In this document: in pieces, positions 17,846 through 37,858 of the stretch | Position numbering within the stretch: position 1 is the stretch's first letter | Layout of the letters: every line of letters starts with the position of its first letter | Translations under genes and position numbers: made by a program | The notes under the pieces: generated by a model | The model's database searches: none | What the model saw: the letters and a program-made list of their open reading frames with translations, nothing else | Told to the model about the DNA's origin: nothing | DNA from: a virus | DNA length: 64,000 nt | Reading direction: 5' to 3' (one strand) | Virus record (IMG/VR): IMGVR_UViG_3300005613_004097 | Span: 32,001 to 96,000 of that record

Positions 17846-18307
17846 CTAAATTTTCATATTGATAACATCTGATAAATATTCACCTTCTTCAAGTTCTATT
17901 TTATTGCAATTTTCCTGTTCTTGTAATTGGTCTATCCACATATTCCAGTTTGTTTCTAACAATTTTACAAATTGCTCGTTGTTTCCTCGATCGACATACC
18001 TTTTGATATACTCATCCTTTATACTTCTTTTTGGATAAATCAAGGTAAAATCTATATTGTTCTCAACAAGCGCATCTCTTACTTCCTTATGTGAGGATAC
18101 TAAAATGATATCAACCTTACCAACATTCTCCTTTATGTGTTCAATATAATTTCTAGGAAAATCAGATTTGTCAAATTTACTTGAATCTGAATCTAATATC
18201 ACTTTGTTGCTTTGGTTTCGATACAGGTGTGATTTACCACATCCAGGAAATGCTGATATTACTAAGGTTTGTTTCATATTATGTTCATTGAATTTCTTTA
18301 TTTTCAT
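17846..18307 (-). CDS. P-loop kinase-like protein
   Basis: VISAFPGCGKS Walker A, DSDSS, YVDRGN; leader MKIKKFNEH. Confidence 0.8.
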   Translation of the reverse strand: MKIKKFNEHNMKQTLVISAFPGCGKSHLYRNQSNKVILDSDSSKFDKSDFPRNYIEHIKENVGKVDIILVSSHKEVRDALVENNIDFTLIYPKRSIKDEYIKRYVDRGNNEQFVKLLETNWNMWIDQLQEQENCNKIELEEGEYLSDVINMKI

Positions 18308-19490
18308 TTTTCAGTATATATTTTCTTGTTCCACAATTCCATGTGTTGTATTGTCCAGATTCAACTATCACAGGTGATGTTGAATCTATCAGACAAGATC
18401 CTTCTACCAATCTATCATCATACCAATCCAGTTCAATTGTCAGGATATTGTCTTTGATATCAAAATCATCAATATCAATTATATCGTTTACCAGATTGAA
18501 AAGTTTTCTTTTAATAATGTCCTTTTGTGTGTTCCATTCAAATTCTCTTATCTGTAAGAGTTTGTATCCTTTTTCAAGACACATGTTTGTCTTGTTCAAG
18601 TGATAATTCATATCATCATTCACTTTTGTGGAATGCCAATAATCACCATTGAATTCAATACATATTTTCATATCAGGTAATACAATGTCGATCTCATATG
18701 GGGATATCAACTTTCTGTCACTTCGATGTATCATACCATCATAAATTGAGCTGATATACTCATAAACTTCCTGCTCTCCCTGTGATCCGATATATTCATT
18801 ACATAGGTTGCAAGGTTCTATATTATCCTTTTTTCTATTTGATAAAGTATATTTACTTATTTCGAAAGTGTGATTTGATTTACATTTTATAGTATAATAA
18901 AGTCCATTAACAGATATTAATTTGTATTTTTCTGGCAAACCTTTCTGGATTTTGATAAATCCTCTTTCAGCATCTGATATTGTTTTTGACCTTATCTTAT
19001 CCAATGATATAGGTTCTTTGACGCCCCACTTTTTCAAGTTATTTTTTTGTCTCTTTTCGATGATCTCTTTAGATTTAGTAGAGTTATCCACGCCATATTT
19101 TTCCAATAGTGTCTTTTTCGACTTCTCTTTCATGATATTGGTCTGTGTAATATACTCAACACCATATTTTTTCAAACATGTATCTCTTTTTTTCTTTTCA
19201 CGAACAACATTCTGACACGATTTTGATCCACATGTTGGTCTATATCCATAACAATGATATTTTCGTTTCTTACCGCATACACACTTTGGTATATCCTTGA
19301 TTCTTTCTTTGAAATGGTAGAGTAGTATCATTGGAGTTTCATTTAGTCCTGTTTCAGACTTTAAAAAATCCAATAGATATCCGTTATTCTTAATGTGATA
19401 CGATATCTGATTGTTGTTTGAACATTCTTTCAAAAGAATATCAATATCCGAAACAGGATCACCAGTCAATTTAATAGTTGATTTTGCCAT
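18285..19490 (-). CDS. free-standing homing endonuclease-like protein (KYGV repeats plus PD-(D/E)XK/Vsr-like domain)
   Basis: Zn-binding Cys clusters, three K(Y/W)GV repeats, EIDI...IEFNGDYWH, LLQIRE.EW. Confidence 0.8.
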   Translation of the reverse strand: MAKSTIKLTGDPVSDIDILLKECSNNNQISYHIKNNGYLLDFLKSETGLNETPMILLYHFKERIKDIPKCVCGKKRKYHCYGYRPTCGSKSCQNVVREKKKRDTCLKKYGVEYITQTNIMKEKSKKTLLEKYGVDNSTKSKEIIEKRQKNNLKKWGVKEPISLDKIRSKTISDAERGFIKIQKGLPEKYKLISVNGLYYTIKCKSNHTFEISKYTLSNRKKDNIEPCNLCNEYIGSQGEQEVYEYISSIYDGMIHRSDRKLISPYEIDIVLPDMKICIEFNGDYWHSTKVNDDMNYHLNKTNMCLEKGYKLLQIREFEWNTQKDIIKRKLFNLVNDIIDIDDFDIKDNILTIELDWYDDRLVEGSCLIDSTSPVIVESGQYNTWNCGTRKYILKNENKEIQ

Positions 19491-36062: not shown

Positions 36063-36491
36063 ATGATTAAATTGCATGATAAGATAGATAGTAAAATTTT
36101 GAAATCTTTACCCAATCCAACAAAGGAATCATATGAGGCAAAGATAAAAATTCCAGAATGTACATTCTTAGGTGTGAAAGAACAACCAGACTTTGCAACT
36201 ATTTATCTTACATTCTATGCAGGTGACAAGATAATTGAATTGAAATCACTCAAACAATATATCTTCCAATTGAGGGATATTGTTGTATCGTATGAACGTT
36301 TGATAAATATTATCTATGATGATCTTATGAAAGTTTATGATCCTCAAAGATTAAGAATTGTTATGATATGTAATCCAAGAGGTGGTATATCATCAACACT
36401 TACGATCGACTCTGATTGGTCTGTCAGAGGTGGTAAGGAAGTTTTCAAAGATTGGAATAATTCTGATGATACTTGGAGTGTTACTATGTAA
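36063..36491 (+). CDS. queF: QueF-like T-fold protein (preQ0 reductase family), canonical Cys displaced
   Basis: QPDFA, ELKSLKQY QueF motif, SYE, PRGGI. Confidence 0.8.
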   Translation: MIKLHDKIDSKILKSLPNPTKESYEAKIKIPECTFLGVKEQPDFATIYLTFYAGDKIIELKSLKQYIFQLRDIVVSYERLINIIYDDLMKVYDPQRLRIVMICNPRGGISSTLTIDSDWSVRGGKEVFKDWNNSDDTWSVTM

Positions 36492-37419
36492 AGTAACGCT
36501 CCAATATATCACTGAGTTTCATATTCATTATCTCGTTGAAATCCTCTCTTTTAAGGTCTAGATTCTTTTCAGATTTTTTTATATGAAATATTAAAACACA
36601 CAGGTCTTTAGCCTGTGTGATGCAAATATATGAAAAAAAATTAAAAAAGTGATAAAAAAATCAAGAGGGAAGGTGAACGATCTAATATATAGATAAGACA
36701 AAAACCAAGTCTTAAAAAAATTAAACAGTCTGGTCAGGGGACCTGTCAACGGACTTTAAACAAAAACACGGTGAGGCGTTCTCGTTGGAGAAGTCTGTGA
36801 AACGTGAAACACAAAAATCTTTAGTTTTTGTGTAGTTCATTGCCCAATCGATAGGATCATATACATGTCTTTTCTCATTCGTGGTGCTTTTACTGAGAAT
36901 ATCGAACAATTTTTTATTTTTATTATCAAATTGTTCGATCATTCTTTTTTTGAAATCAACTGTGAAGTTTTCTTTCTTATTGAATATATGAGATATCTTT
37001 ATCTTTCTGGATTCCTTCTTACTTAATAATTTGAAGGTTTTATTGTTGTACCAAAGTTCTTTATCATATCCTTCAAGTTTTATCTTGTACAACGGATAGT
37101 AAGTGGTTCCACATTTCTCTACACTGGATATCCTGTACTTACCACCTTTGATGAAATATCTGTAAGTTTTCACATTACATATTATGATCGAACCAACTTC
37201 GGGAAATGCATCTTTTTGTTCATTCATATAATCTTTTGTTGGATCTAGATCTTTTCCATCCATAAGAACAAACTTGTCTGCATAATACCAACCAAGTCGC
37301 TTACCACACTCGGTCTCAACAAGGTATTGTCTCCAATTGCCACTTCTTTTAACATCTATAAGTGAATAGATGTTTCCTTTTATCAGTACATCGGTATCAT
37401 CCTTCGCTTTTACTCTCAT
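36484..37419 (-). pseudogene. hypothetical gene interrupted near its 3' end by a non-autonomous IS element
   Basis: Removing 36583-36840 restores ...PIDWA-IKKSEKNLDLKREDFNEIMNMKLSDILERYFT* in frame. Confidence 0.8.
36583..36840 (+). mobile_element. non-autonomous IS200/IS605-family element (tnpA/tnpB-less) with omegaRNA-like right end
   Basis: Subterminal hairpins 36597-36619 and 36809-36833 share loop TCTTTAG; left flank TTTAT; right end TAGTTCAT; no target duplication. Confidence 0.8.
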
Positions 37420-37858
37420 TCAAATATTTTTCATATAGTTTGTCAATTGAATCATCATCGATATCTTTCATAAGTTGAGAAAAATGTTCTTTTATCAAAA
37501 GAAACATGTTCTCAGAATTCAGAATTTGAATATCTTGATATAGTTTTGATGCAACTTCATCAGTTAAAATATCAATTTTTGTTTGATTGGATCCTATTCC
37601 GATTGCAACAAGCTTTTTCATTCTTTGTCTTTTCGTATCATCGATGATGAACTCCCAATCTGTCATTTTTTCGAGGTTCATTCTCAGGTCCGATACACTT
37701 TTAACAACCAGAAATCCGGAAGATATTTGTTCGAATCTGAATCTGTCACAGAATTCTTTGGCTTCTTTCAAACCAAGATCTGTAGAGAATTTTATTGCCT
37801 TTACAAGGCCAAGATGTTGGCTACCTCTTTTTCTTAATGTGATCTTTACTAATTCCAT
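37397..37858 (-). CDS. protein with N-terminal ribosomal L7/L12 C-terminal-like domain
   Basis: LVKAIKFSTDLGLKEAKEFCD; TACATTTG 4 nt before ATG. Confidence 0.7.
   Translation of the reverse strand: MELVKITLRKRGSQHLGLVKAIKFSTDLGLKEAKEFCDRFRFEQISSGFLVVKSVSDLRMNLEKMTDWEFIIDDTKRQRMKKLVAIGIGSNQTKIDILTDEVASKLYQDIQILNSENMFLLIKEHFSQLMKDIDDDSIDKLYEKYLNESKSEG

Follow-up and report, generated by a model that had tools for sequence, protein, structure and literature searches.

The window analyzed here is a stretch of 64,000 nucleotides that corresponds to bases 32001 to 96000 of the 108,514-bp IMG/VR virus record IMGVR_UViG_3300005613_004097, and positions are given in window coordinates throughout. The GC content of the record is 33% and its completeness was estimated at about 18% with CheckV, which indicates that it represents a fragment of a very large phage. 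This picture was matched by the genes in the neighborhood, which include genes for an S1-domain protein, a QueF-like protein, M16 peptidases, and an RNA ligase. No match to the region was identified among the GenBank phages in blastn searches.

A gene of unknown function on the minus strand, with no match in Pfam or PHROG, was found to be interrupted by a protein-less segment of 258 bp at positions 36583 to 36840, which is an IS200/IS605-type (PATE-like) element and is read with the plus strand as its top strand. The 5' part of the gene, located at positions 36841 to 37419, encodes 193 amino acids, and the severed 3' part at positions 36484 to 36582 encodes 32 amino acids (36487-36582) followed by a TAG stop codon. 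The end of the QueF-like gene on the plus strand (36491) overlaps the stop codon of the interrupted gene (36484-36486) by a few bases; the two genes converge, and the element is therefore located at a point of convergent transcription. It was also noted that, for the gene just upstream of the interrupted gene, on the minus strand at positions 37397 to 37858, the match to the C-terminal domain of ribosomal L7/L12 stayed below the threshold (24.2 bits, as compared with a cut-off of 25.9).

The sequence-only reading held that precise removal of the insert restores the gene and that a lack of empty-site alleles would speak against it; the gene is indeed restored, and such alleles exist. Excision of positions 36583 to 36840 joins the 193 and 32 amino acids into a protein of 225 amino acids, which is 95% identical to a protein of the same length in a public collection (P0001) that reads continuously across the junction (...DPIDWV-IKKSEK...) and has a C-terminus matching the severed part (IKKSEKNLDL...ERYFT). 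No homologs of P0001 were identified in IMG/VR, and the two empty alleles came from a scan of metagenomes. These are short contigs of about 1.1 to 1.4 kb from different samples (L082 and L083), in which the gene is uninterrupted and the sequence is colinear with the window up to position 36582 and again from position 36836, at 93% to 96% identity. On the plus strand, the empty site reads TTTTTTTAT followed by TACCCAGTCGATAGG, and the flank in the window reads TGCCCAATCGATAGG, from which it follows that the insertion was scarless, without a duplication, and directly 3' of TTTAT.

The TTTAT pentanucleotide at positions 36578 to 36582 on the plus strand represents the target and putative transposon-adjacent motif (TAM), is kept directly before the junction in the empty alleles, and contains the left cleavage site TTAT as its last 4 bases. 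The insert terminates with TTCAT (36836-36840), and the exact boundary can be slid by 2 nt since the left flank and the insert both end in "AT". No target duplication was observed. Only 2 open reading frames are present within the insert. One is the read-through tail of the interrupted gene, which consists of 39 codons and a TAA stop codon at positions 36721 to 36840 on the minus strand and gives the truncated gene its new end within the element (ORF 36721-37419). The other is a mechanical frame of 52 amino acids with a TTG start. The coordinates and features that had been described from the letters alone, that is, a 258-bp insert after TTTAT that ends in TTCAT, carries 2 hairpins with the loop TCTTTAG, and contains neither a gene nor a target duplication, were thus confirmed.

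The first of the 2 hairpins, CACACAGG-TCTTTAG-CCTGTGTG, is located at positions 36597 to 36619, and the second, ACACAAAAA-TCTTTAG-TTTTTGTGT, at positions 36809 to 36833. They are arranged in direct orientation with a shared loop and lower stem, without terminal inverted repeats, and they differ by 3 compensatory changes in the stem, with the loop and the CACA/TGTG foot being kept. No other hairpins with a TCTTTAG loop and a stem of at least 4 bp were identified in the whole 108,514-bp record, and because both hairpins are unique to the insert, we rejected the reading that they represent phage terminators or REP-type hairpins. A TIR-type MITE with a TA or AT duplication was likewise considered and rejected, since the ends in the family are not inverted repeats and the shared 2-nt "AT" represents the boundary ambiguity.

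The left end of the element (36593-36619, plus strand) consists of the 4-nt DNA guide AAAA (36593-36596) and the subterminal hairpin (36597-36619), in the same layout as in 60 left-end hairpins from viral contigs; its nearest match, in L054, was 88.7% identical over 52 nt. An A-rich spacer follows at positions 36620 to 36682 on the plus strand, which aligns with the mini element L041, is homologous to the sequence that precedes tnpB in the full-length relatives, and resembles, by eye, the tnpB upstream sequences of L044, L051, and L145. The right end (36806-36840, plus strand) consists of the DNA guide GAAA (36806-36809), the hairpin CACAAAAA-TCTTTAG-TTTTTGTG, and the tail TAGTTCAT, within which the right cleavage site TCAT is located at positions 36837 to 36840 on the plus strand.

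To place these ends in a family, we scanned IMG/VR with a degenerate hairpin pattern and recovered 73 viral stretches, which resolved into a left-end class and a right-end class. Members of the left-end class contain TTTAT, about 18 nt ending in AAAA, and then the hairpin, and TTTAT precedes the left end in most members of the family. Members of the right-end class contain GAAA, a hairpin, and then TAGTTCAT, after which the homology stopped in 54 right ends. The paired ends defined 2 size groups, one of full-length elements of 1275 to 1813 bp and another of mini elements of 119 to 373 bp, here called minis. The long elements encoded either TnpB alone (L010, L049, L042) or Y1 TnpA and TnpB in divergent orientation (L014, L044), and the short elements of 119 to 373 bp, of which the element in the window is one, were without genes.

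The Pfam domains in the full-length elements were Y1_Tnp together with OrfB_IS605, Cas12f1-like_TNB, and HTH_OrfB_IS605, and the Y1_Tnp matches in L014 and L044 had E-values of 1e-29 to 2e-31 and were located between the same types of ends. The NCBIfam models transpos_IS200 and IS200_TnpB matched the full-length relatives with 119 and 446 bits, respectively, and the TnpB proteins of the family matched the ISDra2 TnpB structures in PDB over the full length with an E-value of 1e-79. The sequence-only reading implied that tnpB genes with related ends should be found, and elements with the same ends that carry tnpB and tnpA do exist in IMG/VR. Among the unique scaffold-type tails in the sampled viral contigs, 41 were protein-less and 12 (12/62) were tnpB-bearing.

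The cleavage sites of IS608 are recognized through guides of 4 nt that lie 5' of the foot of each hairpin (PMC3201880). In the window, the guide at the left end, AAAA, corresponds to TTAT, and that at the right end, GAAA, corresponds to TCAT. The fourth base of the right guide was found to covary with the last base of the element: in a set of 63 right ends, GAAA was combined with TTCAT in 33 and GAAG with TTCAC in 25, with 4 exceptions. A corresponding change was seen at the left end of L026, where AAAG is combined with TTTAC. The covariation of guides and sites is a family-specific signature which both ends of the window element obey, and it parallels the CL/GL and CR/GR rule of IS608 (PMC3201880).

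The GC content of the element is uneven, with 42% at positions 36728 to 36840, as compared with 25.5% at positions 36583 to 36727 and 33% genome-wide. The GC-richer segment had been proposed to encode an omegaRNA, and the analyses uphold this by identifying there a covarying scaffold that is homologous to the tnpB 3' end plus right end found in autonomous relatives. This omegaRNA-type scaffold spans 113 nt (36728-36840, plus strand), as indicated by its fold, covariation, a covariance model, and a remnant of the C-terminus of TnpB, and it contains 5 helices, all on the plus strand: S1 (36727-36732 paired with 36750-36755), S2 (36735-36738 with 36742-36745), S3 (36767-36770 with 36803-36806), S4 (36774-36783 with 36788-36796), and S5, which is the right-end hairpin (36809-36818 with 36824-36833).

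The last 91 nt of the element (36750-36840) are 80% to 94% identical to the right ends of family members, with 80% to 90% for L044, L051, and L069 and about 81% for the full-length elements L044 and L051, and the nearest scaffolds linked to a tnpB gene are about 81% identical to that in the window. Minis such as L055 align with the window over 155 nt, and the best match to the element, for which no near-identical copy was found elsewhere, was 83% identical over the right 155 nt. When read in the frame of tnpB, the tail of the element in the window translates into GEAFSLEKSVKRETQKSLVFV followed by a stop; in the relative L076, the TnpB frame ends with VEALSLDESMKPETHKSLACV and a stop. The homology of the right ends, taken together with this translation, identifies the 113-nt tail as what is left of the 3' end of tnpB, together with the right end. 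OmegaRNAs are encoded at this place, and their guide of about 16 nt is derived from the flank (PMC8612924).

The covariation was assessed in an alignment of 63 sequences, consisting of the window scaffold and 62 further unique tails from a second scan. The fraction of paired cells was 95.8% in this alignment, as compared with 78.5% in column shuffles and only 31% to 44% when the partners were slid, and changes on both sides were observed in 20 of the 31 consensus pairs. None of 500 shuffles reached any of the 5 covariation measures. All 31 consensus pairs are made in the window copy, the minimum free energy fold of which corresponds to the consensus (z = -2.3), and the covariance model R1 matched the window with 125 bits and an E-value of 1.3e-27, this being its sole match in the record. 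The covariation among the minis may represent inheritance from tnpB-bearing parents and is not proof of selection in the minis themselves. It was also noted that RNAalifold proposed a pseudoknot from loop to tail, in which GGA in the S2 loop pairs with UUC of TAGUUCAU, and that the changes at these positions were one-sided only.

Searches of both strands against Rfam at E-values of up to 10 gave only noise from snoRNA and miRNA models and no match to an intron, ribozyme, or omegaRNA family. This bears on the alternative of a self-splicing intron or some other mobile insert (group I/II intron, IStron, or TIR-type MITE) that is removed in the RNA so that the gene remains functional. Like many phage introns, the insert is located inside a phage gene, its length is a multiple of 3 (258 = 86 x 3), and IStrons are known to combine IS605 ends with introns. 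However, the top strand of the element is antisense to the interrupted gene, a 258-bp insert with a scaffold of 113 nt leaves no room for a ribozyme, and the ends match IS200/IS605, with neither a consistent terminal inverted repeat nor a target duplication. Furthermore, the frame through the insert contains the in-frame stops TAA, TAA, TAG, and TGA, and since these are of 3 kinds, no single recoding would open it. We consider this alternative highly improbable.

Additional sequence features were observed in a subgroup of minis of about 320 to 370 bp (L055:4822-5140 on the minus strand, L091, L098, L139, L164, L228, L016, and L080), which contain an extra conserved module located between the promoter motif and the scaffold. 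The module reads ...AGTTCTTTGA...GGTTCTG-variable hairpin-CAGGTAAAATCA...AAAGT, and the arms of its hairpin, which is absent from the window element, vary in a compensatory manner between copies; it may represent a second RNA domain.

The same type of omegaRNA scaffold was also identified in contigs from cellular genomes (L195-L227), mostly of Bacteroidota and mostly of the GAAG/TTCAC subtype. It was present in multiple copies in Bacteroidota, with 11 loci in Algoriphagus resistens NH1 and further occurrences in Chitinophagaceae, Flammeovirgaceae, and Cytophagales, and it was also found in MAGs of Saccharibacteria and other Patescibacteria. Contigs assigned to bins of Saccharofermentanales and Trichloromonas contained the TCTTTAG/TTCAT subtype; these contigs may represent phage DNA that was binned wrongly.

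Upstream of the scaffold, an exact copy of the 9-mer TAATATATA is located at positions 36683 to 36691 on the plus strand and points into the scaffold. The window contains 18 copies of this promoter-like motif, as compared with 1.5 expected, and the record contains 28 copies, 25 of which fall in the 8% of the sequence that is intergenic. As many as 20 of the 28 copies are located at most 100 nt upstream of an ATG start codon on the same strand, often only 4 to 24 nt away, and this usual distance suggests that the leaders are very short or absent. Examples in the window are the sites at 15679, 25564, 51739, 53147, and 61883 on the plus strand and at 14814, 15674, 19503, and 40249 on the minus strand. 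The motif was also found about 6 nt upstream of the ATG of tnpB in L014, L044, L051, L145, and L049, and it precedes ordinary phage genes in related contigs.

The sequence-only reading had called the motif a phage late promoter. It was found to be a recurrent intergenic motif of the phage that is present also before tnpB, but the label "late" is neither supported nor refuted, given that the genes located behind the motif in the record are mixed and include genes for a nudix protein, an Acb1-like 2H phosphoesterase, an HNH homing endonuclease, a lysozyme, and proteins of unknown function. Two of these genes are located on the minus strand of the window: a gene resembling those for HNH-type homing endonucleases at positions 18285 to 19490 (PHROG 3339, E-value 6e-41) and a gene for a 2H phosphoesterase at positions 14266 to 14799, for which the match to the Pfam family Acb1 (anti-CBASS) was just above the threshold (28.9 bits, as compared with 27). 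Within the element, the motif is located 36 nt upstream of the scaffold, for which reason the 5' end of a predicted RNA would need processing. In the independent minis L017, L019, L065, and L062, a promoter-like motif is located 3 to 8 nt before GTCTGG, which suggests that the scaffold starts there, corresponding to position 36728 in the window.

By the established mechanism of TnpB (PMC8612924), the flank UGCCCAAUCGAUAGGAUCAU at positions 36841 to 36860 on the plus strand would provide the guide portion of the RNA. No second copy of this predicted guide occurs in the window. At the same place, L082 and L083 read TACCCAGTCG, with mismatches at positions 2 and 7, and these empty alleles may for this reason not be cleavable by the RNA from the window. 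It was also noted that a 12-bp AT-rich inverted repeat, ATCGAACAATTT ... AAATTGTTCGAT, followed by CATTCTTTTTTT, is located inside the interrupted gene at positions 36901 to 36952 on the plus strand, where it was noticed through a spurious Rfam match to a miRNA. Situated about 60 to 110 nt downstream of the right end, the repeat could end plus-strand transcripts that leave the element.

The layout of the strands agrees with the earlier suggestion that the predicted plus-strand RNA is antisense to the interrupted gene. On the minus strand, the left-end hairpin (36597-36619) is followed by TTTTAATATT and scores as similar to an intrinsic terminator, about 100 nt past the new stop codon of the truncated gene. 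An alternative explanation is that the element has been exapted as an antisense or regulatory RNA, or as a terminator for convergent transcription, without the involvement of TnpB. A plus-strand transcript antisense to positions 36841 to 37419, the terminator-like score of the reverse complement of the left-end hairpin, and the location of the element where 2 convergent sets of genes meet would all fit such a role. Yet the insert is absent in relatives of 93% to 96% identity and thus not a fixed feature, it destroys the conserved C-terminus of the gene, and its conserved features are all explained by constraints on the transposon and the omegaRNA that are common to tnpB-bearing elements, so that we find exaptation improbable.

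We conclude, with a probability of roughly 0.8, that the insert is a non-autonomous, protein-less, PATE-like derivative of an ISDra2-related IS200/IS605 element, the RNA of which would be used by TnpB in trans. Both hairpins of the TnpA type and both 4-nt DNA guides are intact, the scaffold copy is complete, and the insertion is antisense to the gene. The element probably originated when an internal deletion eliminated nearly all of tnpB and spared the left end, the tnpB promoter region, the last approximately 40 codons of tnpB, and the right end. Transcription from TAATATATA, or read-through from the upstream genes on the plus strand (ending at 36491), would produce an RNA of about 150 to 170 nt, predicted to consist of a leader, the scaffold, and a flank-derived guide (UGCCCAAUCG...). 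TnpB supplied in trans would load this RNA and cut empty alleles flanked by TTTAT, and recombination with an occupied genome after the cut would restore or spread the element. Candidate sources of TnpB are the unsequenced 82% of the phage genome, a co-infecting phage, and the host, and Y1 TnpA would be needed in trans for excision and transposition. As a side effect, the interrupted gene would lack its last 32 residues, and the reverse complement of the left-end hairpin together with a run of T resembles a terminator for the truncated gene.

No gene for TnpA or TnpB, not even a pseudogene, was identified in the 108.5-kb record, which covers about 18% of the genome, apart from the tnpB tail inside the insert itself. 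Neither blastn nor the covariance model identified further copies of the element in the record. In IMG/VR, no tnpB gene was found with the exact scaffold subtype of the window, the 15 loci of this subtype being either minis or copies cut by the ends of contigs. The element could accordingly be seen as an inert relic, a stranded PATE that meets neither a compatible TnpA nor a compatible TnpB during infection and has a functionless RNA, for which the only effect is the truncation of the gene. The lack of transposase and nuclease genes for the element in the record, its single copy there without near-identical sisters, and the missing tnpB partner of the same scaffold subtype in IMG/VR all speak for such a fate. 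Against it, both hairpins, both DNA guides, all 31 RNA pairs, and the exact 9-mer motif are intact, the record covers only about 18% of the phage genome, and many tnpB copies with the scaffold type of the window are present in related phage contigs and in Bacteroidota genomes. We consider an inert relic unlikely, but the most probable of the alternatives.

Several features of the element correspond to those of previously characterized systems. PATE-like elements have been described in Geobacillus stearothermophilus, where PATEs often encode omegaRNAs that are acted on in trans by the TnpB proteins of other elements (Meers et al. 2023, PMC10055086). Like these, the window element is protein-less, has subterminal hairpins at both ends in common with elements that carry tnpA and tnpB, is inserted without a scar 3' of a TAM, and retains a guide-RNA scaffold close to the right end for which TnpB would be needed in trans. 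The TAM is also the same, since TTTAT is the TAM of the experimentally tested GstTnpB2 (PMC10055086). In contrast to the G. stearothermophilus PATEs, the window element interrupts a gene in a huge-phage genome and contains the motif TAATATATA, which recurs upstream of this phage's own genes, it is without partner genes in a fragment of 108 kb, and protein-less scaffold copies outnumber the tnpB-bearing ones by 41 to 12 in the sampled viral contigs. TnpB genes have been reported in phages, including huge phages (PMC12607003).

The similarity to ISDra2 of Deinococcus radiodurans, which encodes TnpA, TnpB, and the reRNA/omegaRNA (PDB 8H1J, 8BF8, 8EXA), includes the homology of TnpB in the full-length relatives throughout its length, the divergent arrangement of tnpA and tnpB in L014 and L044, and an RNA that originates from the 3' end of tnpB together with the right end and takes its guide from the flank (PMC8612924). 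The window copy differs from ISDra2 in being without both genes, in having TTTAT rather than TTGAT as the TAM, and in the length of the RNA, with a scaffold of about 113 nt here, whereas the RNA of ISDra2 is about 150 nt including a guide of about 16 nt. As in IS608 of Helicobacter pylori, the paradigm for Y1 TnpA, there are 4-nt guides and insertion occurred 3' of a tetranucleotide without duplication (PMC3201880), but the sequences of the hairpins and sites differ. Furthermore, the left site is 14 nt from the foot of the hairpin (18 nt in most relatives), as compared with 19 nt in IS608, and the distance from the foot of the right hairpin to TCAT is 4 nt, as compared with 10 nt in IS608.

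Since omegaRNA-encoding PATEs have already been described (Meers et al. 2023, PMC10055086), the window element belongs to a known type, and the picture of how IS200/IS605 and PATE elements work is unchanged. What is modestly new is that the element resides in a phage, that it uses a motif recurring upstream of the phage's own genes, and that copies which lack a protein gene but retain the scaffold are in excess in these phage contigs. In a clade of AT-rich phage contigs, an ISDra2-like IS family with TTTAT as its TAM is common, and its tnpB is located behind the gene-upstream motif of the phage, and a covariance model built from 63 sequences is now available for a type of omegaRNA that is absent from Rfam. 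The locus unites all parts of the TnpB homing model at the level of sequence, that is, occupied and empty alleles, the TAM, DNA and RNA guides, and a candidate promoter, and it does so in a huge phage, a setting in which co-infection supplies partners for recombination. The idea of a guide RNA acting in trans thereby becomes directly testable with defined sequences.

A bolder proposal, which we regard as rather unlikely at present, is that the minis that encode only an omegaRNA form a self-sustaining, phage-adapted lineage, in which the RNA is transcribed from a phage promoter motif and a TnpB borrowed from the host or a co-infecting phage cuts the insertion-free alleles of competing phages during co-infection. 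If so, the minis would spread as an RNA-only gene drive, or serve as a weapon for marker exclusion analogous to the homing endonucleases of phages, without ever encoding a protein.
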